The notes: a model not told the origin generated them from the letters alone. A stretch of DNA of 64,000 nucleotides from an uncultured Nitrososphaerota archaeon (GCA_963824385.1 CAWGPD010000001.1:96001-160000), one strand, 5' to 3'. Shown: positions 5,014 to 36,188, numbered from the stretch's first letter. A program made the numbers and translations.

Positions 5014-5544
5014 TTACTTTTTGAATTTCTTTTGATACAACTTTATTCCAGCAAGGACTTCTTTCTTTGCGCTAACAGCGTTTTTCCATCCCAATATCTC
5101 GACTTTCTTTCCTTCGAGTTGTTTGTACACTTCAAAAAAGTGAGCAATTTCTTGCAAATAGTGTTTGTCAAGGTCAGCAATATCCTTTAGATTATCATAT
5201 CTTACGTCGTCTTTTGCAACACATAAAATCTTGTTATCCATTTCACCTCCATCTTTCATACGAAGTATTCCAATCGGACGTGATTCTATTAGAACGCCTG
5301 GATATGTGTGGTTAGTAACAAGTACAAGTGCATCCATTGGATCGCCATCTTCTGCATATGTTTGTGGAATTATGCCATATTCTCCTGGATAGAAAAATGG
5401 TGAAAATAATACTCTATCAAGTTTAATGATACCTCTTTTTTTATCATATTCGTATTTGTTCTGAGAACCTTTTGGGATTTCAACTATAACGTTAATCACA
5501 GATGGGGTTTTCGGGCCAGTTTCAATGTCATGCCACAAGTCCAT
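5014..5544 (-). CDS. ppa: Family I inorganic pyrophosphatase
   Basis: EIPKGSQNKYEYD, YGIIPQT, DGDPMD signature. Confidence 0.97.
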   Translation of the reverse strand: MDLWHDIETGPKTPSVINVIVEIPKGSQNKYEYDKKRGIIKLDRVLFSPFFYPGEYGIIPQTYAEDGDPMDALVLVTNHTYPGVLIESRPIGILRMKDGGEMDNKILCVAKDDVRYDNLKDIADLDKHYLQEIAHFFEVYKQLEGKKVEILGWKNAVSAKKEVLAGIKLYQKKFKK

Positions 5545-21657: not shown

Positions 21658-22967
21658 CTACCTTGTAGGGAAGTGATGTATGTTATGTTGGTGATGTGGT
21701 ACATGTATTGGGTGACCACTAGTCTCAACTACAAGATCTGCAAACCATGTGGATCCAGGCACTCCAAGTGCCTCATTATTTACCACATTGTTCATGAATT
21801 GATCATTTATGCTAGTCACATTTGCATTAGATGAATAGTCTGTGACTAACAATCCTACAGGATTATTCTGGAAGAAGTTATTTGTGCTCGTTCCGTTGAA
21901 GCTGTCAAAGACAACCCCATAGCCATAGTTTTTCAGAAAGACATTATTACTTGCATCATTATTTGCTGACAATGTATTGTCACCTCCTACCCACATTCCA
22001 ATGTCACTGAGTGACACTGCATTGTTTGATATTACTACACCAGGTGCATCAAATAACAATATACCAGTTGCCTGATAAAGGGAGGTGAAGTAGTCTTCAG
22101 TATCAGATGCAGTCTGAATAACTATCACCGCTTATCTGACTGTTCTCTATTGTTCCTGTTGCACCATATGCTATCTGGACACCATTTTGTGCCGTAAGAG
22201 TGGTCTGTCCAATGCCTGCTACAACATCATTAGAAACATCACATGAGGTACCAGCATCATTACATGTTATTCCATTTTTTTGATAATTAGTTATGCTACT
22301 ATCCTTAATCAGTACATTTGAGTTTAGACCTGTTGCGGTCTGTACAAATATTCCAAGACCCGCGTCATCCTGACATCCAAATAATGCCTGGTTGCTTTCA
22401 ACATCAAGGCTAACAACATCATCAATTGTTCCAGATGCACTCTGGAACATAATCCCTACAGGTTCAGGATTACTTGCATCCAAACCACAGTCAGTTAGTT
22501 TGCTTCCAATTATGTTACCATTTACCTCAAGATTTTGTATGGTTACACCAGTCAAGCCTGCTGATCCTCCTTGTACAAGTATTATAGGAGCACTGAGATT
22601 ATGCGAATTATCAATATCTGAAGTTGTTGACACAAGATTTGTTGGCTCCAATATTGCAATATCATTCAAGTTATGCGATTCACCGTTTTGTATTGCATGC
22701 CCAACGCCCTCCAATGTCAAAGGCTTGGTTATCACAATATTTTCATGATATACAGTCTGCATCTAGACATATTGTAGAACCAGAGGCAGAAGCATCTATT
22801 GCAGATTGAATTGCATTATCTCCAACATTTTCTCCGTTTATTGTAACTGTGCAGTGTTGATTCAGAGTAATGTTATCAGGGTCATTTGTCGCAAAGGCAA
22901 CACTGCCAAAAAGTAATGAACTGATTGCAAATATGCTTAATATCGATAGAAACGCCTGCAAATTCAC
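21658..22967 (-). CDS. Secreted parallel beta-helix (pectin-lyase-like) protein split by two frameshifts (~22755, ~22113)
   Basis: Signal peptide plus IQSAIDASASGSTICL; YHENIVITKPLTLEG; YQKNGIT and QNGVQIAYGATG repeats; three consecutive ORFs. Confidence 0.75.
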
Positions 22968-23000
22968 TGACGAATAGTTCTTCTACAACTTATTATAGAT

Positions 23001-24290
23001 TTATGGGAATAGTCTTTCAGGATCACGAGGATATAGTACAACCTCTCTAACATTGTCAATCTGCGTTAAAACAGCCATCAGCCTATCCAAGCCTAATCCC
23101 CAACCAGAATGAGGTGGCATCCCCCAGTCAAATGCTTTCAAGTGGTCTTCAAATTGTACAGGATCTAGTCCTTGTTCTACCAGTCTAGATCTTATCTTGG
23201 CAGGATCATGTAGTCTTCTACCTCCAGAAGACAATTCAAGATATCCAAATTGGAGATCAAATGATTTTGAAGTTGTAGGATCATCTTCTTTTTCATGGAT
23301 GTAAAACGGTTTTAGTTTAAGTGGCCAATCAGTCAAAAAGTAAAATCCAGGATGAATCTCACCAAGTTTTCTCAGATGCGAGTCAAGTAAATCATCCCCA
23401 AATGTAAGACCAAGTCCTTGTTTTCCAAGATCTTCAATTGCTTGTCTGTATGTCACCCTATCAAAAGGTGTTTTTGGCGTTTTAATTTCAATTCCCAAAT
23501 TCTTTTGTTCTTCAGTACAGTTTTTTTCTACATACTCAAAAACAGATACAACTAGTTTTTCTAAAATTTCCATAACATCGGTATAATCCATAAATGCAGA
23601 TTCAATGTCAACGCTTGTAAATTCTGTCAGGTGTCTTACAGTATGAGAGTTTTCAGCTCGATAAAAAGAAGATATTTCAAATATTCTCTCAAGTCCAAGT
23701 GTTAGTTGTTCTTTGTAAAGTTGTGGACTCTGTGCAAGATATGCTTGCTTGTCAAAATATTTTAAAGAAAATAAATCAGCTCCACCTTCACTTGCACTTC
23801 CTATAATTTTTGGAGTAGTCACTTCAAGAAAACCAAGTTCGGTCAGTGTCTTGCGTATGGAAAGAAGAACATGATGTCGTATCTTAAAGATGGATGCAGT
23901 TTTTTGGTTGCGAAGATCAAGCGCTCGTGCATTTAACCTGTTATCAATTCCACTTTCTAATCTACCAAGTGGGTCTATTGGTAGAGGATGTATTGCTCTT
24001 GATAAAATCTCAATTTTCTCAGCCTTTATCTCATATGTAAAATCTCGCGCTTTAGATTCTTGTACTGCGCCTGCAATTCTCACAACACTCTGTCTGCTAA
24101 GGTCTTTGACTTGCTGCAGGTTTTCTGGACCTGCAACTACAATCTGCGATACGCCTGTGACATCTCTCAAAGTAAGAAATGTGAGTTTTCCCAATTCTCG
24201 TAAATCTTCCACCCAACCTGCAACTATGACTTTTTGACCTTTCATCGAAGGTCCAAGTGAACCTATATTGTGAGTTTTTGTAATATCCAT
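23001..24290 (-). CDS. aspS: Aspartyl-tRNA synthetase (archaeal type)
   Basis: N-terminal OB fold, YLAQSPQLYK, YRAENS, GMPPHSGWGLGLDR. Confidence 0.95.
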   Translation of the reverse strand: MDITKTHNIGSLGPSMKGQKVIVAGWVEDLRELGKLTFLTLRDVTGVSQIVVAGPENLQQVKDLSRQSVVRIAGAVQESKARDFTYEIKAEKIEILSRAIHPLPIDPLGRLESGIDNRLNARALDLRNQKTASIFKIRHHVLLSIRKTLTELGFLEVTTPKIIGSASEGGADLFSLKYFDKQAYLAQSPQLYKEQLTLGLERIFEISSFYRAENSHTVRHLTEFTSVDIESAFMDYTDVMEILEKLVVSVFEYVEKNCTEEQKNLGIEIKTPKTPFDRVTYRQAIEDLGKQGLGLTFGDDLLDSHLRKLGEIHPGFYFLTDWPLKLKPFYIHEKEDDPTTSKSFDLQFGYLELSSGGRRLHDPAKIRSRLVEQGLDPVQFEDHLKAFDWGMPPHSGWGLGLDRLMAVLTQIDNVREVVLYPRDPERLFP

Positions 24291-24300
24291 TAAATCCAGC

Positions 24301-24810
24301 CTACTTTCTCTCAAATTCCACTACTAGTTCTATCTTTCTAAGATCGTGTGCAATTGCAATTACCCTGTTTACATCTATTGGAAATTTTGCGGTCTTTTTT
24401 CCAGACACTATGACTTTGGTTTTTCTAAGACCACCCAAAGCCCAAACTTGGTTTATTGCAAGTATTTTGATTGGAAAGAATACATCTTCGATGAATTTCT
24501 TGTCATCAGAGTTTTGATGGACAAGCCAAATTTTTCCTGAAAATTCACCTTGAAGTATACGATAAAGTTCTCTACTTTGTCTAATAGTCATAATATCCTG
24601 ACTCCCAAGATAGATTACAAAATCACCGTTTGATTCACTGCATGAATTTAAGGTGAATTTTTCTATTTGTGGTATCTTTTGAGAAAGTTTTACAAGTTTT
24701 ATGGAGGCATTAACATCTGCCTTTGTTAGTACTCCATGATCTAATTTTGACTCACATTGAGGACACAGTATACCATTCATTGCATCAAAATTACAAATTG
24801 GTGTCCTCAT
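24301..24810 (-). CDS. nusA: NusA-like KH protein with N-terminal Cys motif
   Basis: PICNFDAMNGILCPQC N-terminus; adjacent to aspS. Confidence 0.7.
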   Translation of the reverse strand: MRTPICNFDAMNGILCPQCESKLDHGVLTKADVNASIKLVKLSQKIPQIEKFTLNSCSESNGDFVIYLGSQDIMTIRQSRELYRILQGEFSGKIWLVHQNSDDKKFIEDVFFPIKILAINQVWALGGLRKTKVIVSGKKTAKFPIDVNRVIAIAHDLRKIELVVEFERK

Positions 24811-24852
24811 GGAAATCGATTTTTTGCTTACAAAACTGGAAGATAAACTATG

Positions 24853-24860
24853 CGAAATTA
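24853..24860. repeat. 8-bp target-site duplication CGAAATTA, copy 1
   Basis: Identical to 28673-28680 and 32555-32562; abuts the GGTTCTGT terminus. Confidence 0.93.
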
Positions 24861-24935
24861 GGTTCTGTTCATTTGACGATTGATCTTCTCCGTGTTCAAA
24901 ATCGGTTGATGATTAAATAATTTGACACTGGTAAA

Positions 24936-25418
24936 TTAACATGGTACGGCATACTCTTCACCAGCCTCGAATAACCGAACTGGCGTATGCCTTGGATCCA
25001 ATCTTCTCACATTTTTATAGTTATGAAGAACCCCCCCATCACTTGTTACAATAATTACTTCAGGTTGATTTAATAAATTTAAAAAAGACAATTCACCAAC
25101 CTGACACTCAGGAATAAGTGGTAGTAAACCTATTTTGTTAGTTATCTCTTTCACTATTTGTTTGTCAATGGATGGTATACTCACTCTGCGAAGAACATTG
25201 GTAAGATGTTTAATTGCCAAGTTTACGCCCTTACTACTTATTTTTCTAGCATAATACAGTCTCATTACTAATTCAATCACTACTACTGGGGTAACGATGA
25301 ACATGCCCTCATTACTACTAATTGTATTTTTTAGCCACTCTCTTACATTACTATTTTTGTTAACAAAGTAGTCTTCCCATACTGTAGTGTCTGTTACATA
25401 GAGAGGGGAAAGACTCAA
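24936..25418 (-). CDS. PIN-domain (VapC-like) ribonuclease toxin
   Basis: YVTDTTVW, IVTPVVVIEL, GE, IVTSD acidic PIN pattern; coupled to an AbrB-like gene. Confidence 0.72.
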   Translation of the reverse strand: MSLSPLYVTDTTVWEDYFVNKNSNVREWLKNTISSNEGMFIVTPVVVIELVMRLYYARKISSKGVNLAIKHLTNVLRRVSIPSIDKQIVKEITNKIGLLPLIPECQVGELSFLNLLNQPEVIIVTSDGGVLHNYKNVRRLDPRHTPVRLFEAGEEYAVPC

Positions 25419-25810
25419 TTCTCTGCTGAATCCAATATCTCATCAATCTTATCTAACGCTTTTACCGCATCTTCGCCTTCAAGTTTTTTCCCTATTACAA
25501 TCTGTTTTAGGTCTTCATCATATATGTCTGCAAATAATTCATCCCCTACTTTCCAATTGAGTTTATTGGTTAGATCGAATGGGAGTACTAATCCATTATT
25601 TTCATTAAGCATTACTTTTGGTTCAACATTAAAAAATGACATATTTTGGAAAGACTCTGGATAATTTAATTCAGCATAGTAAGGAGTTTTGTATACACCT
25701 TTAACTTCAGCTAATAGCCATATTTTTTCTTGTTTTCTCGGGATAACTTTGATTGGTTTTTGTTCCTTTGGAACAATATCATACCATTCATCTTCTTTTT
25801 GTTTACTCAT
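25415..25810 (-). CDS. AbrB/MazE-fold antitoxin-like protein
   Basis: NGLVLPFDLTNKLNWKVGDELFADI swapped-hairpin motif; ATGA overlap with the PIN gene. Confidence 0.68.
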   Translation of the reverse strand: MSKQKEDEWYDIVPKEQKPIKVIPRKQEKIWLLAEVKGVYKTPYYAELNYPESFQNMSFFNVEPKVMLNENNGLVLPFDLTNKLNWKVGDELFADIYDEDLKQIVIGKKLEGEDAVKALDKIDEILDSAEN

Positions 25811-26433
25811 TGTCCTTTCACCTTCTTTACATAAGATTCAGCCTTCTCTATTTGTTTTTCCATATTCTGAAGTTCTTTGATTAGTTTTTTTACTTCGGTT
25901 TTGGTGAGTTCAAAACTTACTGGTCGTTTGTCTCCTGCTTCAGTAATTTTAAAATTTATGTTACAACATGGATAAAGATATTCGTCAAAATGAGGTGGTG
26001 ATAATAATCTTACATCATAATCAAATGAACGAATGTCTAAAGTAGGAGTTGCAGAATGAAATTTGTAATCTATATCATGTAATATTCCTTCTTTTTCTAA
26101 TCTATCTGAAAGAGTTAGTAATCTATCAGCATCCTGTTTTGAAATTTTAAGACTACTTTCCAGTGTATTTTTATTTTTAACATAATGTAATAGAGTCTGA
26201 GTAGCATCCATTATTTCACCCAATATTGTGACTAGTTGTTTTGTCTCTAATCCTTGTATTTTGATTTTGTTAACTTCAGGTGCATGTGTGTACAGTCCTA
26301 CTCCCTCGTCTACAGGTTCAACTACAATTGTACAGTCAGACCATAATCGTACAAATGTATCTAAAACCTGATTAAATTGATCGGGAGTTAATTTGAATAA
26401 ATTGGGAAATCCAAAAGTATTTTGTTCAGACAT
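25807..26433 (-). CDS. Hypothetical protein with a C-terminus resembling a COMM domain
   Basis: PTLDIRSFDYDVRL...YPCCNINFKI...VSFELTKTEVKKLIKELQNMEKQIE pattern, judged by eye. Confidence 0.55.
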   Translation of the reverse strand: MSEQNTFGFPNLFKLTPDQFNQVLDTFVRLWSDCTIVVEPVDEGVGLYTHAPEVNKIKIQGLETKQLVTILGEIMDATQTLLHYVKNKNTLESSLKISKQDADRLLTLSDRLEKEGILHDIDYKFHSATPTLDIRSFDYDVRLLSPPHFDEYLYPCCNINFKITEAGDKRPVSFELTKTEVKKLIKELQNMEKQIEKAESYVKKVKGQ

Positions 26434-26598
26434 AGTATTATCCTGCAAAAAATTCTATTTAAACATAAGCAAGTAACTATGATGTAGGTTTCCAGTATTC
26501 CGTAATTCTATGTCTACAATCATCACACCATAAATATTTGATTTGATAATCATAGTCAGCATCCATTCGGATTTTGCATGAGGGACATTCGTATGTAG

Positions 26599-27729
26599 TC
26601 AAGATTCTCTTCTGCTGGCATTCTGTATCAAGGTAATCCACTTGTTATCTCCCTCAATCTTGATTCCTGCAACTTCGCTAGGAGTTTTTCCTTCTAATCC
26701 CATATGAGGTCTAATGTAGTTGTGATAGATTTGATAACCTGTGAGAATTGGTGTATTGTTTATTTTCAATCCTCTCATTACTTTCTCACGGTCACGAATC
26801 TCACCGTTTAGTCTTTCCATCATGTTGTTGTGTCTATCACCTTTGAGAGTTATATGAGATTCATGAACTACTCTTGGTAGTTCTCTTGTCCAATATTCCT
26901 TCAAAAATGCTTCTCGGTATGCAGGTAATCCATCAGTGATTAGTTTGGTTGGCTTCTTTTCTGCTATTGCTCTAGCCATTCTAAAGAGATTCTTTGCATC
27001 ATGATTGTTCTTTGTTTCTGCCACTTCTTGAGCAATCAAGAACCTTGTTTCATCATCCATCATTGCAAATAGATATTTTCGATTTCCTCGAATCTTGATG
27101 AATACTTCATCTGCTCTCCAAATGTCTCCTACTTGTGGTGTAATGTCATCTAGGTATTTTTCCATAAGATTTGTGTATTTTTTGATCCAGTTGTAAACAG
27201 TAGCATGAACTACATCAACACCAAGCAATTTTAGAGATTTTGTGACATTTCTCAGTGATTCTCCGCTAAAGTATAGTTGCATGGCGGTTGTAATTGCTCT
27301 AGGATTGTGCTTCATTCTCTCAAAGCCTATATTGAGACTGAAAGTTTTGTGGCAATCAGAGCAAACGAATCTCTGAATATCATAATTCTTGTTGTGTCTT
27401 ATTCCAAATTTCTTAATGTTGTTCGATTTGCAGAATAGACAGGAATCAATGTTTATTGGTTGAATTGTTACCTTGTTCTTCTGTATTACCTGTTCTCTGA
27501 TCTTGATACTAAGTTCTACGCCATGAATATGCTTACAACAAATATGTCTGAATGCGTAATCTTTACAATTACAAGTCCATCCTGCATCTGTAAATACTAC
27601 AGCATATTCGCCTTTAGTTGTTTGTGATTTTACTTTGTATTGGTTTGCGTTGATTCTGAAAATCTGTTGATTCGGATTCTGTGCAATCTGTTTTCCTTTT
27701 TCTTCACGTGGATTCGCTCTGTTTTCCAT
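26599..27729 (-). CDS. IS6-family DDE transposase with N-terminal SWIM and Zn-ribbon domains
   Basis: CNCKD...CKH (SWIM), CLFC...CSDC, HTH, and the WRADEVF / ITDG / NNMMER catalytic triad. Confidence 0.92.
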   Translation of the reverse strand: MENRANPREEKGKQIAQNPNQQIFRINANQYKVKSQTTKGEYAVVFTDAGWTCNCKDYAFRHICCKHIHGVELSIKIREQVIQKNKVTIQPINIDSCLFCKSNNIKKFGIRHNKNYDIQRFVCSDCHKTFSLNIGFERMKHNPRAITTAMQLYFSGESLRNVTKSLKLLGVDVVHATVYNWIKKYTNLMEKYLDDITPQVGDIWRADEVFIKIRGNRKYLFAMMDDETRFLIAQEVAETKNNHDAKNLFRMARAIAEKKPTKLITDGLPAYREAFLKEYWTRELPRVVHESHITLKGDRHNNMMERLNGEIRDREKVMRGLKINNTPILTGYQIYHNYIRPHMGLEGKTPSEVAGIKIEGDNKWITLIQNASRRES

Positions 27730-27730
27730 G

Positions 27731-27787
27731 TATGTGTATTATACACATAACTATAAAAGTATTGTGTATAATGTGTATAATGCACAA
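27731..27787. promoter_or_regulatory. Divergent promoter region with TGTGTA...TACACA palindromic operators
   Basis: TATGTGTATTATACACATA at 27731-27749 and TGTGTATAATGCACA at ~27772-27786; TATA-like boxes for both genes. Confidence 0.6.
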
Positions 27788-27818
27788 ATGATAAATAGTT
27801 GATAGTAATAATTACAGC

Positions 27819-28046
27819 ATGGGAAGAATAGACATCATACTACCAGATGATTTAGAAGATAAATTGAAAATGGAGGCAGGAAAAAGATTAGGTGCAAAAA
27901 GAGGAGCATTTACTGAAGCAATCAAGGATGCAATTGGTCTATGGTTAGATCCAAAAACAATGGAATTGATGGAAAAATATACTGGCAAGTCATTAGATGC
28001 AGAAACTAAAGAAATTTTGAAGAAGTATCGGGGTAATGTTGATTGA
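27819..28046 (+). CDS. Ribbon-helix-helix (CopG-like) regulator
   Basis: MGRIDIILPDDLEDKLK...FTEAIKDAIGLWL strand-helix-helix pattern; divergent from the transposase. Confidence 0.72.
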   Translation: MGRIDIILPDDLEDKLKMEAGKRLGAKRGAFTEAIKDAIGLWLDPKTMELMEKYTGKSLDAETKEILKKYRGNVD

Positions 28047-28453
28047 TTATAGAGTATGATCCGAGAAAAGAGACAACCACTGTGAATGGACTCTGTGAAA
28101 AATGTGACAACAAATGGATCGTGAGTCGGGATAATAGTGTTTATCAACTTCCAATGGAATTAAAAGAAAAATGTCCGAAATGCGGTCATGTTAACATACT
28201 TTTCTATCCAGACGAAGAAATGAATAAACAAATGATGAATCAGAAATATGTCTTAGATTTACCCCTAAAATTTGAGAATGCAAAAAAGACAATTGAGAAG
28301 TTAAAAGAAGAGAGAGATGCCCTAAAGGTAAGAAATACCGAATTATTTGATGAAAATAAGATTCTAGTAAAAGCGATTGACATACTTACCGCCAAACTTG
28401 AAAAACTAAATATCAAATTGGACGGTGGAACTGAAAATCCACTTGCTAAATGA
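28043..28453 (+). CDS. Zn-ribbon + coiled-coil passenger protein
   Basis: CEKC...CPKC followed by heptad repeats. Confidence 0.68.
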   Translation: MIIEYDPRKETTTVNGLCEKCDNKWIVSRDNSVYQLPMELKEKCPKCGHVNILFYPDEEMNKQMMNQKYVLDLPLKFENAKKTIEKLKEERDALKVRNTELFDENKILVKAIDILTAKLEKLNIKLDGGTENPLAK

Positions 28454-28672
28454 GTAGTCAAATGTCAAATACGATACTATGCCCTAAATGTGAGGCGTTG
28501 TTAATAAAGGAGGAATTTGAAACCCATGATTGTATTTCTAATTACAAATTTGATGGAAAATATCTATTAATTAGACGAAACGGAAAATGGCGTTCAATTT
28601 ACTTGCCATTATTATTCAGATTATCAACCGATTTTGAACACGGAGAAGATCAATCGTCAAATGAACAGAACC
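28450..28672 (+). CDS. Small Zn-finger ORF running out through the right TIR of element 1 without its own stop
   Basis: MSSQMSNTILCPKC...HDC; ATGA-coupled to the upstream gene; the frame stays open across the TIR and TSD. Confidence 0.5.
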
Positions 28673-28680
28673 CGAAATTA
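28673..28680. repeat. 8-bp target-site duplication CGAAATTA, copy 2 (junction of elements 1 and 2)
   Basis: ACAGAACC-CGAAATTA-GGTTCTGT junction. Confidence 0.93.
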
Positions 28681-28800
28681 GGTTCTGTTGCGATCACGGG
28701 TGATAGACGTTTGACACAAAAATTTTCTGCCTGTTACAGTCGGGTGATGGATCACCCTCGATCATTAAAAGCAAAAATAACCGCATGGTTCAAAGTTTTC

Positions 28801-29514
28801 ATGGCACGTTCAATCAAGATATACCGTTTTTTCACAGCAAAAAAATCCTCTGAAATATACGATATTCTAAAAGCAAGAAAAACTTCACAGAGCGTTAATA
28901 CTTATCCTGAAATCGCTACGATACAAAATAATCCCGATAGTGTTAGTGGTTCATTTCACATAAGAAAAAAAGTATTAGGATCTTGGGAAATTCTTTTCTA
29001 CGAATTTACTATAAAAACAAAAAAGGCTACACTTTTTCTACAAGGTAAAACTGTGGGAAGATCAGATGCTAATGAATTTCTTGCTGAATTAATTGAAAAT
29101 GGAACTTCCAGATATGATGTGATAAAAGAATATGAGTTAACCAATGGTCAGATGCTACAAATTTTCAATAATGTTACAAAACAATATGCAGATAACATCA
29201 TTATGCGATTGAAAGTTCTTTTTAGTCCTCTAAGCGGATATAAATATAAAGATAAAGAGGTTTATGGCGAGTTATCTTTTCAGTTTATTGGAAATAAATG
29301 TGCAAGCAAACATAATGATTTTAGTAATTTTTTAGAAAACAGTATGGAAGTAGAACTGACGTTTGGACTTCTTAAATGTGCAGGATTGGCAAAGGAACTG
29401 AGAAATACACATATTAAATTAATAGCCAAATCTGATTGCAGTTTTAGAATGTATGTGGAAGTTCCACATGACGATTGGATTACTTTTGTTGAAAAGGTCT
29501 TGAATGTGATATGA
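28801..29514 (+). CDS. Passenger hypothetical protein (probable true start 28801)
   Basis: 3' part of ORF 28450..29514; ATG 28801 (MARSIKIY) lies inside element 2. Confidence 0.65.
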   Translation: MARSIKIYRFFTAKKSSEIYDILKARKTSQSVNTYPEIATIQNNPDSVSGSFHIRKKVLGSWEILFYEFTIKTKKATLFLQGKTVGRSDANEFLAELIENGTSRYDVIKEYELTNGQMLQIFNNVTKQYADNIIMRLKVLFSPLSGYKYKDKEVYGELSFQFIGNKCASKHNDFSNFLENSMEVELTFGLLKCAGLAKELRNTHIKLIAKSDCSFRMYVEVPHDDWITFVEKVLNVI

Positions 29515-29524
29515 CAGGGAATGA

Positions 29525-30058
29525 ATGATGAATGAAACCGAAACTTATTATCAACTGTTTGGGAATACAATTACCTTGTCATTAGCAGATCTTCTTGGTT
29601 ATATCGGAATAGGTGTTTCCGTTGGAGTTGGAGTATTATTTGCATCATTAGATTGGAGAAGGCGTGTTACAACCGATAAAAATCATAAAAAAATAATTTG
29701 TTATCACATGAATGAACTTGAAACAATTTTTGCCCACATTATGGTTGATTTCAACAAATTGGAAGAAGATGAAGATGGAGTACCAGAACGTTTGAATCAT
29801 TTTTTAATTGGAAAATATAGACATATTGAGTATTTGATTGATAACATAAAATTGAATAAAATTCAATGTTCAAAATTATCTGATGATGAAGAAAAAGATA
29901 TAGAAAATACATTGAAAATTTCTCAGTGGTTATTGGAAGAATACTGTCCACAGGATGTACTTGAAGCAAGTCGAGTGAGTCTTTGGCGAGAGTACAATCC
30001 AAAACTTAAAGAAAATGCTGAAACATTGGCAAACTCAGTAAAACATTTTGCTAACTAA
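29525..30058 (+). CDS. Passenger hypothetical protein with an N-terminal TM helix
   Basis: LLGYIGIGVSVGVGVLFASL helix followed by a helical soluble domain. Confidence 0.7.
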   Translation: MMNETETYYQLFGNTITLSLADLLGYIGIGVSVGVGVLFASLDWRRRVTTDKNHKKIICYHMNELETIFAHIMVDFNKLEEDEDGVPERLNHFLIGKYRHIEYLIDNIKLNKIQCSKLSDDEEKDIENTLKISQWLLEEYCPQDVLEASRVSLWREYNPKLKENAETLANSVKHFAN

Positions 30059-30060
30059 TA

Positions 30061-30252
30061 TCATTTCGATTTACTATCTTTGTGACTAGTAACTTCTATT
30101 TTGTTTCCCCTAATGATGAATTTTATCATATCGGGATTTCCAAGAAAATCCATTATAGGTTTTGGCAGATAACTTTGCCATCCCCTAGTTTCATGATATG
30201 AAACATTGACAGGAAATTCTTTTTCACCTTTTTTCCATTTAGGCACACTCAT
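30061..30252 (-). CDS. Small AbrB/SpoVT-like regulator divergent from the transposase
   Basis: QSYLPKPIMDFLGNPDMIKFII motif. Confidence 0.65.
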   Translation of the reverse strand: MSVPKWKKGEKEFPVNVSYHETRGWQSYLPKPIMDFLGNPDMIKFIIRGNKIEVTSHKDSKSK

Positions 30253-30278
30253 AATTCAGCAAACTAATATTTATACAT

Positions 30279-30321
30279 TCCACGTGGATAATCATAATAT
30301 TAATATATCCACGTGGATATA
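30279..30321. promoter_or_regulatory. Twin palindromic operators TCCACGTGGA between the regulator and the transposase
   Basis: TCCACGTGGA at 30279-30288; perfect 18-bp palindrome TATATCCACGTGGATATA at 30304-30321, 7 nt before the transposase ATG. Confidence 0.65.
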
Positions 30322-30328
30322 CTATAAC

Positions 30329-31444
30329 ATGCAAAATTCCGATTCAAGAAAAGAAAATGGAAAAAAACTTGCCGAATCAAACAATCATGTTAAGAGAATT
30401 GATGAACACCATTACAAAGTAAAATCACAGTCAGGAAATGGCGAATATGATGTAGTTTCTACGGAATCTGGCTTAAACTGCTCATGCCCAGATCATATAT
30501 TTCGAAAGATATGTTGTAAGCACATTCACGCTGTTGAATTTAGTAAAAAGATTAGAGAGCATGTAAAAAATCATGTTACTGTTCAACCAATCACAGTTCA
30601 TTCATGCCAATTCTGTAAATCAGATAACATAGTCAAGAACGCTGTTAGACACAACAAGTATGGAGATCTTCAGAGGTACCTATGCAAGTCCTGTAACAAA
30701 CGATTCTCAATCAATCTAGGTTTTGAAAGAATGAAGGCTAGTCCAAAGACCATCACAAGTGCCATGCAGTTGTACTTTACAGGAGAATCGTTAAGAAACG
30801 TACAGAAATTCCTAAACCTTCAAGGCATTAACGTTAATCATGTTACAATTTACAGATGGATTGACAAGTATGTAGGTTTGATGAAGAAATACCTTGAACA
30901 AATGACACCGCAAGTTTCTGATACTTGGAGAGCAGATGAGGTTTTCATAAAAGTAAGTGGCAATCTCAAATACCTTTTTGCCATGATGGATGATGAAACT
31001 AGATTCCTAATTGCTCAAGAGGTAGCAGATTCAAAGAATAACCATGATGCTAGAAACCTATTCAGAAAGTCAAATGAGGTAGCAGGAAAGAAACCAACTA
31101 AACTAATCACCGATGGATTACCTGCATACAGAAATGCATTTTTAAAAGAATATTGGACAAGGAAATCGCCTAGAATTGAACATGAATCTCATATTACTCT
31201 CAAAGGTGATAGGAATAACAACAAGATGGAGAGGTTAAACGGAGAGATTCGGGATAGGGAAAAGACCATGAGGGGATTGAAGAAATCAGATACGCCAGTC
31301 CTTACAGGTTATCAGATCTATCATAACTACCTTAGACCTCATATGAGCTTGGATGGTAGTACACCATCAGAAATGGCAGGAATTAAAATTGAAGGCGATA
31401 ACAAATGGATTACGCTAATTCAGAATGCAAAGATAACTCAGTAA
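30329..31444 (+). CDS. IS6-family DDE transposase with N-terminal SWIM and Zn-ribbon domains
   Basis: CSCPD...CKH, CQFC...CKSC, WRADEVF / ITDG / NNKMER; clear paralogue of 26599..27729. Confidence 0.92.
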   Translation: MQNSDSRKENGKKLAESNNHVKRIDEHHYKVKSQSGNGEYDVVSTESGLNCSCPDHIFRKICCKHIHAVEFSKKIREHVKNHVTVQPITVHSCQFCKSDNIVKNAVRHNKYGDLQRYLCKSCNKRFSINLGFERMKASPKTITSAMQLYFTGESLRNVQKFLNLQGINVNHVTIYRWIDKYVGLMKKYLEQMTPQVSDTWRADEVFIKVSGNLKYLFAMMDDETRFLIAQEVADSKNNHDARNLFRKSNEVAGKKPTKLITDGLPAYRNAFLKEYWTRKSPRIEHESHITLKGDRNNNKMERLNGEIRDREKTMRGLKKSDTPVLTGYQIYHNYLRPHMSLDGSTPSEMAGIKIEGDNKWITLIQNAKITQ

Positions 31445-31640
31445 CTTTTTTTGTTACACAATCTGGACATAGAATCAACCCTGCATTGTTAGTAAGAATA
31501 CTCATTGTTGAACAATATTCTTTGAAGAATTTTTTATTTTCACCAGACCAAACATCTTGAAAGAAAAAAATACAACACAGTGGAAATTTTTCTTCAACGC
31601 CAGCATACAAATATCCATGACCGATCTTTTCTTTAGGCAT
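31410..31640 (-). CDS. Small Cys-rich passenger protein
   Basis: FPLCCI and LCPDC motifs in a 76-aa ORF. Confidence 0.5.
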   Translation of the reverse strand: MPKEKIGHGYLYAGVEEKFPLCCIFFFQDVWSGENKKFFKEYCSTMSILTNNAGLILCPDCVTKKVTELSLHSELA

Positions 31641-31928
31641 AATTATTTAGATTTTAAACGTAATAGAGATCTAAAAGTTTTGTTGTTTTTAATTTGATCT
31701 TTTTATTAAATAAGATGAATCATGAGTCAAGTTTATACGAATCAGGCTCACTGTAATACTAGATTTGCGTCACGAATGTCCAAAATGTCTTAGAACTTTT
31801 GCAACAGATGATACTACACTAGAAAAATTTGTTGGTTTTCGGCTATTTCGTGGAATAAAATATGTGCAATCTTGGTGTAGAAAATGTAGAAAAGAAGATC
31901 TACAGGAAAAACGTAAAAATCAAAAGTA

Positions 31929-32255
31929 ATGAATTGGGTAAATGATGTTACAAGATTAAGGCATGACATATTCATCACTTTCATAGAATGCAAAATATCT
32001 CAAAAGGGAAATTGGGAAAACTACACTGCCTTTGGTGATACGTACAAAGTGTTGAGGGCACTTGATAATTCAGGGGAAAATATAGTACAGATGATAGAAC
32101 CAGACGGATTGAAAAGAACGTTACTAATTAGACAGGCAGGAACGATAAGCATGAATCAGAATGTACTATCCTACAATTCTGGTTTTGTATCAGAAATAGT
32201 AGTTGATGAAAAAGAGCAATCAGGTAAAGGCAAAACTAGAGACAAATTGTTGTAA
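31929..32255 (+). CDS. Passenger hypothetical protein
   Basis: 108-aa ATG ORF with no recognisable motif. Confidence 0.5.
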   Translation: MNWVNDVTRLRHDIFITFIECKISQKGNWENYTAFGDTYKVLRALDNSGENIVQMIEPDGLKRTLLIRQAGTISMNQNVLSYNSGFVSEIVVDEKEQSGKGKTRDKLL

Positions 32256-32268
32256 TTTTATTTTAAAA

Positions 32269-32427
32269 CTAAAGTGTGGTAGAAGGTGGGCTGGGCAGAT
32301 ATTTCAATGAAAGCCATCCACATGCAGGACATTTTGTGCCAGTTAATGAACCGCCAGTTGGAACCTCTACTTCTCCAACAAATTCGCACTCGGTACGACT
32401 ACATTTGGCATTTAATTTATTTACCAT
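32269..32427 (-). CDS. Small Zn-ribbon passenger protein (52 aa)
   Basis: Manual translation MVNKLNAKCSRTECEFVGEVEVPTGGSLTGTKCPACGWLSLKYLPSPPSTTL. Confidence 0.55.
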   Translation of the reverse strand: MVNKLNAKCSRTECEFVGEVEVPTGGSLTGTKCPACGWLSLKYLPSPPSTTL

Positions 32428-32554
32428 AATTTCAGTATCGGTAACGTAGATTTAAGGATTAATCATAAAGACAAATGTTTAGGTCATCACCCGACCTGTA
32501 ACACGTAGAATTTTTGAGTGAATTTCCCATATCACCCGTGATCGCAACAGAACC

Positions 32555-32562
32555 CGAAATTA
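32555..32562. repeat. 8-bp target-site duplication CGAAATTA, copy 3
   Basis: ACAGAACC-CGAAATTA-GGTTCTGT junction again. Confidence 0.93.
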
Positions 32563-33004
32563 GGTTCTGTGTAATCTACGTGGGCTGTCATAAAATTTTC
32601 TCTGTGTTTACTTTCGGGGGCTGGCTTGCATTTCGAATTAGTGTTATCCATTTGTTATTACCTTCCACTTTGATTCCTGCCATCTCACTAGACGTCTTAC
32701 CGTTTAATGCCATGCGTGGTCTGAGGATAGAGGTCTATGCAGTAGGCAACTTCATGATTGAAGTCAAGTTATTCCTGTTATACCATAATTGATTACCGTG
32801 TAATTTTATGATCGAGTTTTCTTTCCTGAATTGTAGTCTGAATCGACCATTAGGATTTTCTATGAACACTGCAGGTATTTGGTCACATGATGCCAATACG
32901 TTATAAATAAAATTCTCTTCAGTACTTGTTTCCTCATCATATGCCCAACTCAGATTCAGGTCAATGTCTGAAAAAGGTAGACTCTCAAGTGTTATTGTAT
33001 TCAT
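32563..33004. mobile_element. Remnant of a third related element (one end only; right boundary not located)
   Basis: Begins GGTTCTGT directly after the third TSD; subterminal AAAATTTTCT..TGTTAC..TCGGG resembles the left end of element 2. Confidence 0.6.
32735..33004 (-). CDS. Hypothetical protein, probable passenger of the remnant element
   Basis: 89-aa ATG ORF in an otherwise non-coding stretch. Confidence 0.4.
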   Translation of the reverse strand: MNTITLESLPFSDIDLNLSWAYDEETSTEENFIYNVLASCDQIPAVFIENPNGRFRLQFRKENSIIKLHGNQLWYNRNNLTSIMKLPTA

Positions 33005-33219
33005 ATCTAGTAAATATCCTATTTTACGTTGAGTTTAGATCTATTTTCAGACTATTATTGACAATTTACCAAATATCGTATCACCCTAATTCTGCACAAA
33101 GGCGATTCGTAAATTATCAAGATTCGATTTTACTTGTATTTGGGATTAATGTGACCGCCCATCATGACGTATTGATGAAACATACAAAACTCAAATGTAC
33201 CACCGTCCATAGTGAAATC

Positions 33220-34155
33220 ATGGCATTTCTGTCTGTAAATGATCTTGATGTTCAATATCAGAGTCAAGGAAAAAAGATACATGCCGTAGACCACATATCA
33301 TTTTCCTTGCAAGAAAATGAGTCAATCGGGATAGCAGGAGAAAGTGGTTGTGGTAAGAGTACACTTGGTCTTGCAATCATGAAAACACTTCAGGAAAATG
33401 CAAGTGTGTCAGGGGAGATTCTTTTTGATGATAAATCAATTTTGGCCATTCCAGATCAAGAGTTTACAAAAAATATTCGATGGAAGCAGATATCCATGAT
33501 ATTTCAAGGTGCAATGAATTCTCTAGATCCCGTATTTACCATTAAAAAACAATTTGAGGAGATTTTAAAAAAACATGATTATCAAGGGGATTACAAACCA
33601 GCAATAGAGTCTGCAATATCTTCAGTCGGATTACCACGTTCAGTTTTAGACAAATATCCACATGAGATAAGCGGTGGTATGAAGCAGCGAGTCGTAATTG
33701 CGATGGCATTGATTTTAAAACCAAAGATGGTGATTGCGGACGAGCCAACCACTGCATTAGATGTATTGGTTCAAGCGCAGATCATGATAGTATTAAAAAA
33801 TCTCAAAAAAAGTGGACTTGGAATCATGTTAATATCTCACGACTTGGGCATAATTTCTGAAATTGCTGAAAAAATAGCCATCATGTATGCAGGTCAGATT
33901 GTAGAGTTTGGCATGCTATCAGAGATTTATAAAAATCCAATGCATCCCTATACGTCTGCGCTATTGAATTCAATTCCTAGGCTAGGCAATACCGTAAATA
34001 TCACGTCATTGAAGGGCAGCCCACCCAGCATGATAAACCCCCCAAGCGGTTGCAGGTTTTATGATAGATGCCCGCAAGCAATGGAAAAATGTAAGAGAGA
34101 ACCTCCCAAAATTAAAACATTATCAGGTTTTGTAATGTGTTGGTTACATGAATAA
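33220..34155 (+). CDS. dppD: Peptide ABC transporter ATPase (DppD/OppD)
   Basis: GESGCGKS, YPHEISGGMKQR, IADEPTTALD, GCRFYDRC; ATG at 33220. Confidence 0.9.
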   Translation: MAFLSVNDLDVQYQSQGKKIHAVDHISFSLQENESIGIAGESGCGKSTLGLAIMKTLQENASVSGEILFDDKSILAIPDQEFTKNIRWKQISMIFQGAMNSLDPVFTIKKQFEEILKKHDYQGDYKPAIESAISSVGLPRSVLDKYPHEISGGMKQRVVIAMALILKPKMVIADEPTTALDVLVQAQIMIVLKNLKKSGLGIMLISHDLGIISEIAEKIAIMYAGQIVEFGMLSEIYKNPMHPYTSALLNSIPRLGNTVNITSLKGSPPSMINPPSGCRFYDRCPQAMEKCKREPPKIKTLSGFVMCWLHE

Positions 34156-34194
34156 ATAATTTTTAAAAATATTTGTTAAAACAGAATTGTAGTT

Positions 34195-35139
34195 TTACTT
34201 TAGACCTGTACCGTTATAGTAAGAGTTGTAGTCGTTTAATGCATTGGTCAATGATGCAGTTTGTGCTTGTGCTATTGCTGTATTTCTATCGACGTGTACT
34301 TGTTCATTGGTAGGTGTGCTACTCAAACCATTGTAGTTTGAGGTGTAAGAGTTAAGGCTTGCGTGTTGAATTTCATTGTAGATCATTACAGCTTTTTCAA
34401 GTGAATATGCTTCTTGTGGTGGCAAATTGCGACCTCCGTAATTGAATTCACCGGTCGTCGAACCAGCCTTGAATGCATATGGACTAGTGGTGTCAGAATA
34501 TGAACCTAGGTTGACATAAACTTGGTCAGTCCTTGCAAGTGAGTTGACTAGTGCTGCGGCTTGAGCTACAGCGGTTTGTTCATTTTGATTAATCATCATT
34601 TGTCTATCATAAGTAGTAGTTTCATCGGTTGGAATGCTTTGGCCAAAGTTGTTATAATTTTGCTGAATCTTGATGAGTTGACTTAGAACATCATTTGCTG
34701 ATACAAGAGATGATGCAGTTGCACTGTTAATCATGGCAGTTCTATCTCTACCTTGTTCATCAGTAGCAGTACTAGTAAGTCCAGTATAGTCAGATGCAAT
34801 ATTTGCTAGTGGATTTGAGTGAATTCCATCAAATGCAGATATAGCATTTTGAGCAGAAAGTGTTGAAGCATCAGCAATATCTCTACCTCGGCTTGTTTCA
34901 TCAGTAGCAGTAGTGTTAAGTCCAGCCCAGTTTGTCTTTGATGCATCCATGTTAGCAAATTGGTAATAGGTATTGTACTTTTCAATAGCCGTTTGCTCGG
35001 ATGATTGCTGTCGAGCTACAATATCTGACCAAGGATCATCTGCAAAGACTAATTGGTTCAAGTATGATGAGCCTGCGCTAAATAGAAATCCGGTAATCAT
35101 TACAACGGCCAATAATTTTGAGTTCACGAATTCTCTCAT
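34195..35139 (-). CDS. Secreted protein with internal repeats
   Basis: Signal peptide; recurring GLxxTxTDE..GRD units. Confidence 0.75.
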   Translation of the reverse strand: MREFVNSKLLAVVMITGFLFSAGSSYLNQLVFADDPWSDIVARQQSSEQTAIEKYNTYYQFANMDASKTNWAGLNTTATDETSRGRDIADASTLSAQNAISAFDGIHSNPLANIASDYTGLTSTATDEQGRDRTAMINSATASSLVSANDVLSQLIKIQQNYNNFGQSIPTDETTTYDRQMMINQNEQTAVAQAAALVNSLARTDQVYVNLGSYSDTTSPYAFKAGSTTGEFNYGGRNLPPQEAYSLEKAVMIYNEIQHASLNSYTSNYNGLSSTPTNEQVHVDRNTAIAQAQTASLTNALNDYNSYYNGTGLK

Positions 35140-35221
35140 ATATTATGCCTTTTAAAACTTTGCGATGGATAGGTTTTGAGCATATGATCGCTTGATATAT
35201 TTCCAATCGTAACAAATACCA

Positions 35222-36188
35222 ATGGAAGAGATTCTATCAGTCAATAATTTAAAAAAATACTTTGTAAAAAAAGAACTTTCAGGGGCAAGTAAAGAGACCA
35301 TAAGAGTAGCAGACGGAATATCATTTTCAATAAAAACAGGGGAGACCCTGGTATTAGCTGGCGAGTCAGGCTCGGGCAAGACTACAATCGCCCGTATGAT
35401 ACTACGAGCAATAGAACCAGATTTGGGAACCATAAGTTTTGAGGGAGAAGAGATAACAAATCGTCAAGACCGCCTAAGAAAAATAAGACTTGGTTGTCAG
35501 ATGGTTCACCAGGACCCATATGCATCAATCAATCCAAGAATGACTGTTCTAGATATCGTAAGGGAACCACTAGACATTCATTCCATTGGAAATAAAAAAG
35601 AAAGAAACCAGTTAGTGTTGCAAGCACTAAGTCAGGTAAATCTAGAACCAGTAGAAGAGATTGCAGCAAAATATCCTCACATGTTATCAGGCGGACAAAG
35701 GCAAAGAGTTGCACTAGCCCGTGCAATTGCAACAAAACCAAAAGTAATCATTGCTGATGAACCCGTTTCAATGCTTGATGTATCAGTAAGAATCGGAGTT
35801 TTAGAGCTTATGAAAAATTTGCAGGAAAAGCTAAAGATTTCTTTTTTGTACATAACACATGATTTGGCCACTGCAAATTATATCGGCAACAGAATTGCAA
35901 TTTTGTATCTTGGAAAGATTGTAGAGATTGGACCAATCAATGAAATTTTATCAGGCCCACGCCACCCATATACTCAGGCACTCATAGATTCAATTTCATA
36001 TCCAGATCCAGAGAATCTAAAGAAGGACAGAAAAATTCGAATCAACGATCCCATAGATGTGGATGTGTATCAAGGCTGCAGATTCAGAGACTCGTTGTCC
36101 TCATGCTATTGAAAAATGTAAGCAGGAACCACTACTTGAAGAAATTTCAGACGGCCGTCAAGTTGCATGTTTTGTAAAGATAAACTAG
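35222..36188 (+). CDS. dppF: Peptide ABC transporter ATPase (DppF/OppF), frameshift near 36092
   Basis: GESGSGKT, LSGGQRQR, IADEPVSMLD. The shifted frame restores RCPHAIEKC...QVACF. Confidence 0.88.

Follow-up and report, generated by a model that had tools for sequence, protein, structure and literature searches.

Stacked IS6-like cargo transposons with identical 8-bp junctions in an uncultured Nitrososphaerota archaeon point to repeated insertion at a promoter edge

Introduction

How do several different transposons come to stand tip to tip beside one gene, each parted from the next by the same eight base pairs (bp)? The question is raised by a 64,000-nucleotide (nt) stretch of DNA from an uncultured, ammonia-oxidizing Nitrososphaerota archaeon (GCA_963824385.1, CAWGPD010000001.1:96001-160000), here called the window, in which the 8-mer CGAAATTA flanks two complete elements, E1 and E2, and also precedes a truncated third element, E3, between a NusA-like and a dppD-like host gene. 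The elements resemble insertion sequences (IS) of the IS6 family and carry cargo genes. Comparison with related genomes leads us to what we consider the probable answer, namely that IS6-like cargo transposons home to the edges of promoters and there build stacks in chronological order.

Results

The tandem layout of 8-mer, two complete elements and a third tip, first described in the original prediction, was confirmed at the coordinates given in Table 1. The number of CGAAATTA copies in the window is by itself unremarkable (5 against 2.1 expected). The tip sequence GGTTCTGT occurs 6 times against 1.7 expected, a count reached in none of 100 shuffles; five of the six copies are element tips, and a search of the whole genome returned these five tips as the only element ends. 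GGTTCTGT is common to all tips, and the shared part of the ends is limited to the outer 8-9 bases. Each end also carries a motif of its own type twice, ~37 bp apart, reading CG(A/G)TTGAT in E1, CGGGTGAT in E2 and CG(T/G)GGGCTG in E3, and we therefore regard these as three different elements, each with its own end recognition. The arms of E1 extend over 53 nt at 98% identity, the outermost 50 being perfect, and those of E2 comprise 25 perfect bases followed at each end by a diverged subterminal CGGGTGAT repeat. E3 retains the last ~41 codons of a transposase gene (32588-32713, minus strand). Behind it stand an open reading frame (ORF) of 89 amino acids (aa; 32735-33004, minus strand) and a decayed E2-type right end at ~33048-33104 (a weak local alignment, score 24). 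In genome G169 the 89-aa ORF lies between E2-type ends at the same site, and empty sites are without it; judged from these sequences, the remnant is probably the fourth and oldest layer. E1, E2, E3 and the remnant each arrived separately and belong to IS6-family cargo transposons that are related without being the same: they differ in end motifs, in cargo and in transposase, the enzymes of E1 and E2 (Tnp1 and Tnp2) being 69% identical, in keeping with the earlier claim of distinct arrivals rather than a duplication.

Membership in the IS6 family, also proposed originally for these gene-carrying elements, is upheld. Tnp1 and Tnp2 are DDE enzymes, each with a SWIM finger and a zinc ribbon at the N-terminus, and both match Pfam DDE_Tnp_IS240 and SWIM; Tnp1 scores 66.6 bits with PF13610 (cut-off 27), passes the NCBIfam IS6 equivalog model NF033587 (128 bits, cut-off 125) and contains a zinc ribbon of the IS1/IS1595 type. 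Across 21 aligned family members, the SWIM residues C53, C55, C65 and H67, the ribbon cysteines C97, C100, C123 and C126, and D207, D266, E305 and R312 are invariant, the last four forming a D, D, E triad with an R seven residues after the E. The DDE profile match, the triad, the K/R after the E and an 8-bp direct target duplication, all characteristic of IS6/IS26, are thus present here, the duplication both in the window and in relatives. Of 201 genomes sampled from the archaeon's family, 89 encode homologues of the transposase, as do 26 of 251 sampled across the phylum, five other families included. A database search returned 5466 proteins at an E value of 1e-10 or better, the closest public records being annotated "IS6 family transposase" in Nitrosotalea, Nitrosopumilus and Nitrosotenuis. 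The window's own genome holds a third, 40%-identical SWIM-IS6 transposase gene (G000:C4:474434-475536; L001 4405-5573), split over two frames and adjoined on the opposite strand by a small ribbon-helix-helix-like ORF; inverted ends were sought around this copy and none was recognizable.

Relatives that could be delimited measure 2179-4801 bp (n = 32) and enclose 3-8 passenger ORFs within their inverted ends. Identical 8-mers stand on both sides of 22 of 25 end-paired elements, with one reverse-complementary pair and two different pairs (a composite E1+E2 row and a spurious L088 row being excluded), and a matching 8-bp duplication was present at 11 of 20 further loci. Single elements carry unrelated duplications (AGATCTCA, CTTTCAGA, AAGTATTC, GCAAAAAG, CATTTGTT and others). 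Genome G100 contains two direct copies of one element with swapped flanking 8-mers (C1, L110 and L111, at ~1.33 Mb and ~1.84 Mb; GTCCGTTG...AAAATAAC versus AAAATAAC...GTCCGTTG) and a solo end 351 bp from the first copy, a pattern that looks like the signature of an IS6-style cointegrate or of recombination.

Stacks like that of the window recur. Facing tips were sought in 401 genomes of the family with the pattern CAGAACC-N(0-30)-GGTTCTG, which gave 75 listed places and 32 more. Among the 75 listed, the spacer is exactly 8 in 29 (24 when five places in unpublished genomes are left out), followed by spacers of 7 (10 places), 1 (5), 9 (4) and 28 (4), and by all others at 3 or fewer. Eight of the ten 7-bp places are one conserved sequence of a single genus, to which the 1-bp places also belong, and no clear elements were found at the junctions with 9-bp and 7-bp spacers (L088-L092). 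The 8-mers agree within a stack and differ between stacks, being TGTTTCGA four times in G347 (four elements), TGTTTGGG three times in G373, TGTTTTAG three times in G170, CAAAAGCA twice in G209, TTAAAAAG three times in G190 and CCCAAGCG in a further stack. Repeated insertion into the same 8 bp, as first suggested, is therefore borne out, and arrays at fixed loci do recur in relatives; the companion idea, that CGAAATTA itself is the specific target or recognition site, was rejected, because stacks elsewhere and single elements carry other 8-mers and what stays constant is a position near a TATA-like box. Mapping the ends and duplications of homologues yielded tandem arrays and recurrent loci, without conservation of the 8-mer as a target.

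Two transposase-less miniatures, L080 9826-11118 in G369 (1293 bp) and L119 10115-10746 in G190 (632 bp), have the family's ends and share their neighbours' 8-mer; non-autonomous derivatives therefore take part in stacks. Two pairs of 8-mers are reverse complements: those at 2296-2303 and 5339-5346 of G176:C134 L033 (CGATTAAA/TTTAATCG), and those at G019:C1:782061 and 805702, 23.6 kb apart (CGGTCAAA/TTTGACCG). A spacer flip across the palindrome of abutted tips, or an inversion between stacks, is a possible origin of both.

The constant position shows in the promoter flanks. In the window the start codon of the NusA-like gene lies 42 nt from the duplicated 8-mer, and the TATA-like box TTTATCTT lies 5 nt from it, oriented away from the stack. 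The archaeal TATA consensus is TTTAWATA; octamers were scored against it if they pointed away from the element and began at a distance of 3-7 nt from the 8-mer, each locus being counted once and elements with unmatched 8-mers and flanks abutting another element being excluded. With one mismatch at most allowed, a box was present at 1 of the 3 loci that generated the idea, at 3 of 10 from the existing collection and at 5 of 8 in a set fetched after the idea had formed, against a background of 4.0%; at most two mismatches gave 3/3, 7/10 and 8/8 (18/21 in total) against 27%. When offsets 0-40 were profiled in 39 usable flanks, 9 of the 10 boxes that deviated at no more than one base began at 5, 6 or 7, and reverse-oriented boxes gave no offset peak. 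A single crude ORF rule, used for the sites as well as for the background, finds at 7 of 13 distinct loci an outward ORF start 36-42 nt away from the 8-mer, compared with 5.3% of intergenic positions. Two of the idea-generating loci, A and B, share the flank "aactatg"; that they might be orthologous was ruled out by tblastn.

The same promoters are occupied again and again. Comparison of the NusA-like/dppD-like interval across 20 genomes of the same genus, which had been proposed as a check, produced both empty sites and differing elements: an IS6-type tip directly follows the 8-mer in 12, the site is empty in 4 and 4 are unclear. The site has at least two end types, E1-like in G094, G200, G226, G219, G203 and G109, and E2-like in G169, G205 and G217. 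Ten genomes from 4 genera carry insertions 36 nt upstream of radA (L086 included by its flank), G122, G172 and G112 (two genera) carry them 39 nt ahead of the ribosomal P1 gene, and a further recurrent site is occupied in G190, G182 and G134. The P1-site duplications are perfect yet wholly different (AGATCTCA, TGAATTAT, TGAAATTA), and this speaks for independent insertion events at a single position. The window's genome has radA and P1 sites that are empty or hold a decayed trace at most. Between the radA TATA box and the start codon lies a palindrome, taccgtatggtacggta (L045 6790-6869 and orthologues), which is kept in four genera and looks, from its sequence, like an operator.

Within stacks, decay is polar. 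Ten stacks are informative in that the promoter flank is known and the members are in different states (the window and L081, L078, L038, L046, L047, L085, L086, L120 and L119; four loci, five genera); G170, with both members intact, and G269, at a contig end, are uninformative. In all ten, transposase genes are full-length in the members next to the TATA flank and reduced to a fragment or missing in the distal one, and it therefore seems that new arrivals land beside the promoter. Two stacks show a decayed 8-mer at the far end only, TGTTTTAA beyond four promoter-side copies of TGTTTCGA in G347 and TATTTGAG beyond three copies of TGTTTGGG in G373, which fits an old first insertion, drift on the promoter side and later arrivals that copied the drifted 8-mer.

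Sequence from other samples adds alleles of the window site. Logan contigs of four other runs were placed on 24600-33200. Contigs in X2 (record 7), X4 (record 24) and X5 (record 31) span the E2/E3 junction with 0 differences; X4 and X5 come from a study different from that of the likely source. One X4 contig connects the left flank to the E2 end by way of the 8-mer and GGTTCTGTT, and an X3 contig runs from the last 14 left-flank bases directly into the 8-mer and E3; in both, the loose and shared parts add up to exactly 31 letters, as expected of a true branch in the word graph. X5 has E2 and E3 at a depth of ~10 and leaves E1 uncovered. Alleles with E3 only, E2-E3 and E1-E2-E3 beside the flank appear to coexist in nature, and the flank-E2 and flank-E3 forms read as the intermediates that stepwise stacking predicts.

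Table 1. Features of the stack and its flanking genes (window coordinates).
Feature	Position	Strand	Remarks
NusA-like host gene, 169 aa	24301..24810	-	NCBIfam NF005013 91.6 bits, below cut-off 175
TATA-like box TTTATCTT of NusA-like gene	24840..24847	-	TTTAWATA with 2 mismatches, offset 5
CGAAATTA copy 1, promoter-proximal target duplication	24853..24860
E1, complete IS6-like cargo transposon, 3812 bp	24861..28672		perfect 50-bp inverted ends 24861-24910 and 28623-28672
E1 cargo operon, three overlapping ORFs (160, 131, 213 aa)	24936..26448	-
E1 transposase (Tnp1), 376 aa	26599..27729	-	SWIM finger, zinc ribbon, helix-turn-helix and DDE domains
E1 small ORF, 75 aa, divergent from transposase gene	27819..28046	+	putative regulator
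CGAAATTA copy 2, between abutted E1 and E2 tips	28673..28680
E2, complete IS6-like cargo transposon, 3874 bp	28681..32554		perfect 25-bp inverted ends
E2 small ORF, 63 aa, divergent from transposase gene	30061..30252	-	two TCCACGTGGAT repeats in spacer
E2 transposase (Tnp2), 371 aa	30329..31444	+	Pfam DDE_Tnp_IS240 and SWIM
CGAAATTA copy 3	32555..32562		bridged by contigs of runs X2, X4 and X5
E3, truncated left end of third element, other end type	32563..32725		tip GGTTCTGTG
Older remnant behind E3	32726..33104		89-aa ORF and decayed E2-type right end
Oligopeptide/dipeptide ABC ATPase (dppD-like), right-flank host gene	33184..34155	+	Pfam ABC_tran, oligo_HPY

The cargo of E1 and E2 gave few matches. 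The E1 operon has a weak VapC match (E 6e-4, below the cut-off), NCBIfam and Pfam returned nothing for the cargo of either element beyond this, a COMM domain and zinc-ribbon hints, and PADLOC, run on 14 cargo ORFs, gave a single sub-threshold match and none for E1 or E2 cargo. The COMM domain, known best from eukaryotes, scores 27.7 bits (cut-off 22.4) in the 213-aa ORF at 25807-26448 (minus strand), which overlaps the two upstream ORFs of the operon, one of them weakly VapC-like. The 89-bp spacer between the small E1 ORF and the transposase gene contains palindromic repeats, for which reason we treat this ORF as a putative regulator, and the other small divergent ORFs may have a regulatory role as well. 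That of E2 has homologues at the equivalent position in 4 other elements, and among 32 relatives 5-6 have homologous small divergent ORFs so placed. An open frame at 28450-29514 (plus strand) begins in E1 and extends into E2 across the intervening right end of E1 and the 8-mer; the E2 ORF probably has its own start at 28747, so that a small zinc-ribbon ORF of E1 would read through the element end. In relatives, DNA-methylase domains were found in 6 of 7 larger cargo proteins scanned, among them fusions of 821 aa (HSDR_N+N6_Mtase) and 505 aa (methylase-HNH).

Scans of 22000-36000 for tRNA genes and Rfam families gave no matches, and a sigma-70 promoter scan, whose model is inapplicable to archaea, was not enriched (45 against 39.2). 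TBP is encoded twice in the window's genome, and TFB by at least four paralogues (G000:C3:71040-71600, C1:213980-214520). A complex prediction for TBP, the TFB core and transposase residues 1-140 scored 0.02, which weighs neither way.

Discussion

We think it likely that these stacks arise because IS6-like cargo transposons home to the upstream edge of promoters. The target would be chosen by position and not by the 8 bp that are duplicated: a staggered cut would leave an 8-mer ending 5-7 bp from a TATA-like box that points away from the element, placing the insertion at the upstream edge of the core promoter, ~36-42 nt from the start codon. The flank that carries the promoter would be untouched by the insertion, and the next arrival could then cut the same 8 bp, re-duplicating the 8-mer and pushing earlier elements outward, with the newest always adjoining the promoter. 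An intact flank and recutting of the same bonds would result in identical 8-mers, tips 8 bp apart, an age-ordered stack and a series of alleles. In our reading, the geometry follows from how the transposition machinery chooses its target, a step for which a direct reading of the DNA and a reading via bound TBP/TFB are both conceivable.

An incoming element might instead be drawn to the tip of a resident and cut the 8 bp flanking it, in which case the promoter position would simply be where the first element survived. Abutted tips exactly one duplication length apart and the GGTTCTGT common to all tips would suit such an attraction, and IS30 is known to target its own inverted repeats. A preference of IS26 for inserting beside another IS26 is documented in the IS6 review's account of that element (PMC7986276). 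Single elements, however, already sit at the TATA geometry, the same promoters hold single elements in other genera, and no arrival at the promoter-distal end was seen in the 10 informative stacks, though both resident ends carry the same tip. We judge this explanation unlikely, and attraction to ends may act together with promoter positioning.

Random insertion followed by selection would confine survivors to a narrow neutral gap upstream of core promoters in gene-dense genomes. The empty intergenic region at the window site spans only ~70-100 bp between two divergent starts, and no insertion was seen closer than ~35 nt to a start codon; selection surely narrows which insertions survive. It does not predict reuse of the same phosphodiester bonds 3-5 times or an offset peak only 3 bp wide, and even when sites are conditioned on a distance of at least 36 nt, the 7 of 13 loci stand far above the ~7.5% that chance would give, and we consider chance and selection an improbable cause of the pattern.

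Still less probable is cassette exchange by site-specific recombination, with the tip-8-mer-tip palindrome (9-bp arms, 8-bp spacer) serving as a lox- or dif-like site for conservative insertion and excision of whole units. The junction does resemble a recombinase core site, whole-unit presence/absence alleles are nucleotide-precise, and the flipped spacers in G176 and G019 could be read in this way. A Pfam scan of 19 ORFs, however, turned up neither a tyrosine nor a serine recombinase, each unit comes with a DDE transposase and inverted ends of its own, and the unrelated, perfectly duplicated 8-mers of single units are what staggered-cut transposition predicts. Least credible of all is a false tandem join made by short shared junction words in a metagenome-assembled genome, which the 5-contig, 86%-complete assembly and the unbridged left and E1/E2 junctions might suggest, since the E2/E3 junction is bridged without differences in three other runs, two of them from another study, and genomes assembled as a single contig, G347, G209 and G122 among them, show this architecture too.

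Several points weigh against promoter-edge homing or limit the evidence for it. Among the contig pieces listed, none bridges the left or the E1/E2 junction, because E1's 50-bp repeat is longer than 31-letter words, and these two joints thus lack independent confirmation. Precise deletion between the 16-17-bp direct repeats formed by 8-mer and tip would yield alleles identical to those observed. The ten polarity cases are not independent, the radA stacks within a genus probably sharing an inherited distal member, and the inverted junction 8-mers of G176 and G019 depart from the expected direct repeats. The window's own box has 2 mismatches to the consensus, and 3 of 21 sites (F_G136, H_G013, M_G100) have no box even at 2 mismatches. 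The geometry background derives from one genome with a crude ORF mask, loci A, B and C generated the idea, and the independent test set comprises only 8 sites. In genomes as compact as these, purifying selection must also favour gaps upstream of promoters and could make the pattern sharper. Finally, 9 of 13 loci of multi-copy relatives with a clear end pair are without matching 8-mers (the ends being unclear at seven further multi-copy loci), indicating that later rearrangement or replicative events are common. These loci are also the sole hint of replicative transposition via cointegrates, and together with the swapped flanks in G100 they are compatible with IS6-type replicative or recombinational rearrangement.

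The elements are close to IS6/IS26 (IS26, IS257, IS240) in several respects: the DDE transposase that matches IS6 profiles, the 8-bp duplication, tips that start with GG and contain cTGTt, here GGTTCTGT(T/G), and copies without duplications, as after replicative or intramolecular events. The perfect ends of 25-50 bp are supplemented here by a second subterminal motif. An N-terminal zinc-finger extension is also known from IS6 members, in the clostridial clades (long clades h and i) to which alone the review's treatment of such extensions assigns them, with no Thaumarchaeota in that treatment (Varani et al. 2021; PMC7986276). As the review's sections on size and organization describe them, most members measure 700-890 bp and one has a passenger gene; E1 (3812 bp) and E2 (3874 bp) lie well outside this compact, one-ORF format of ~0.7-0.9 kb (PMC7986276). 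The present elements differ from IS6/IS26 further in their range of 2.2-4.8 kb, in two-part ends of 50-70 bp with type-specific motifs, in insertion at a promoter edge and in the head-to-tail stacking of different elements. IS26 arrays, unlike these stacks, are direct repeats of one IS around cargo.

Abutted ends spaced by exactly the target-duplication length recall IS30, whose (IS30)2 dimers, with a 2-bp spacer, are a reactive intermediate of one element. The transposase family is different, however, and the present stacks are stable, polar and built of different elements. Insertion at a fixed distance from a recognized flank that is left intact, and hence a reusable site, together with cargo, is shared with Tn7 at attTn7. 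Tn7 employs TnsABC with TnsD/TniQ, and target immunity prevents a second insertion, according to the parts of the source that treat targeting (PMC11014353). Here one DDE transposition protein is recognized per unit, and repeated insertion at the same site is the opposite of immunity. The original prediction's likeness to an integron or tandem casposon array stands as far as the ordered array of cargo units at one fixed locus is concerned and fails for the mechanism, here a DDE transposition that duplicates its target: the Pfam scan of 19 ORFs gave no IntI or other recombinase beyond DDE domains, no Cas1-type integrase and no family B polymerase, no attC was found, and the units are autonomous, each with its own transposase and ends. 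Tandem casposons are on record in Nitrosopumilus, in a survey of thaumarchaeal mobile elements whose main discussion treats IS-like elements as 1-2-gene units and tandem casposons, not stacks of the present kind, and in whose available text the whole word "IS6" is absent (PMC6563490). The available text of a 2026 survey of archaeal IS contains neither "tandem" nor "passenger" (PMC13343696). In the literature searched we found no description of promoter-edge stacking by IS6-like elements, and supplements might list such elements.

We speculate, more tentatively, on how the promoter edge might be found. The transposase, probably through its SWIM/zinc-ribbon N-terminus, might be guided by the archaeal pre-initiation complex, TBP and TFB bound to the TFB recognition element (BRE) and TATA box, so that integration would be tethered to the upstream edge of active promoters; the stacks would then be age-ordered archives, in a safe harbour, of exchangeable defence and toxin-antitoxin cargo that turn over in natural populations. 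This is a possibility we hold well below promoter-edge homing itself. Ty3 and other promoter-tethered retroelements of eukaryotes integrate at a fixed distance from a TBP/TFIIB-type initiation complex; element class and domain of life differ, and tethering in the present case is a hypothesis which, if true, would make it a prokaryotic counterpart of Ty3-type targeting. The two TBP genes and several TFB paralogues of the window's genome bear on this idea.

If stacking by promoter-edge homing is correct, the IS6 family gains a large archaeal branch that carries cargo and homes to promoter edges, and a single-protein DDE element would be capable of targeting that is defined by position rather than by sequence. 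Such targeting would account for the tolerance of compact archaeal genomes toward these elements, and the order of arrival would be readable at each locus. The methylases and fused restriction-modification-type proteins in the cargo of relatives suggest that stacks may serve as small defence islands. Insertion of this kind also suggests a safe-harbour tool for archaea, in which few genetic tools are at hand.

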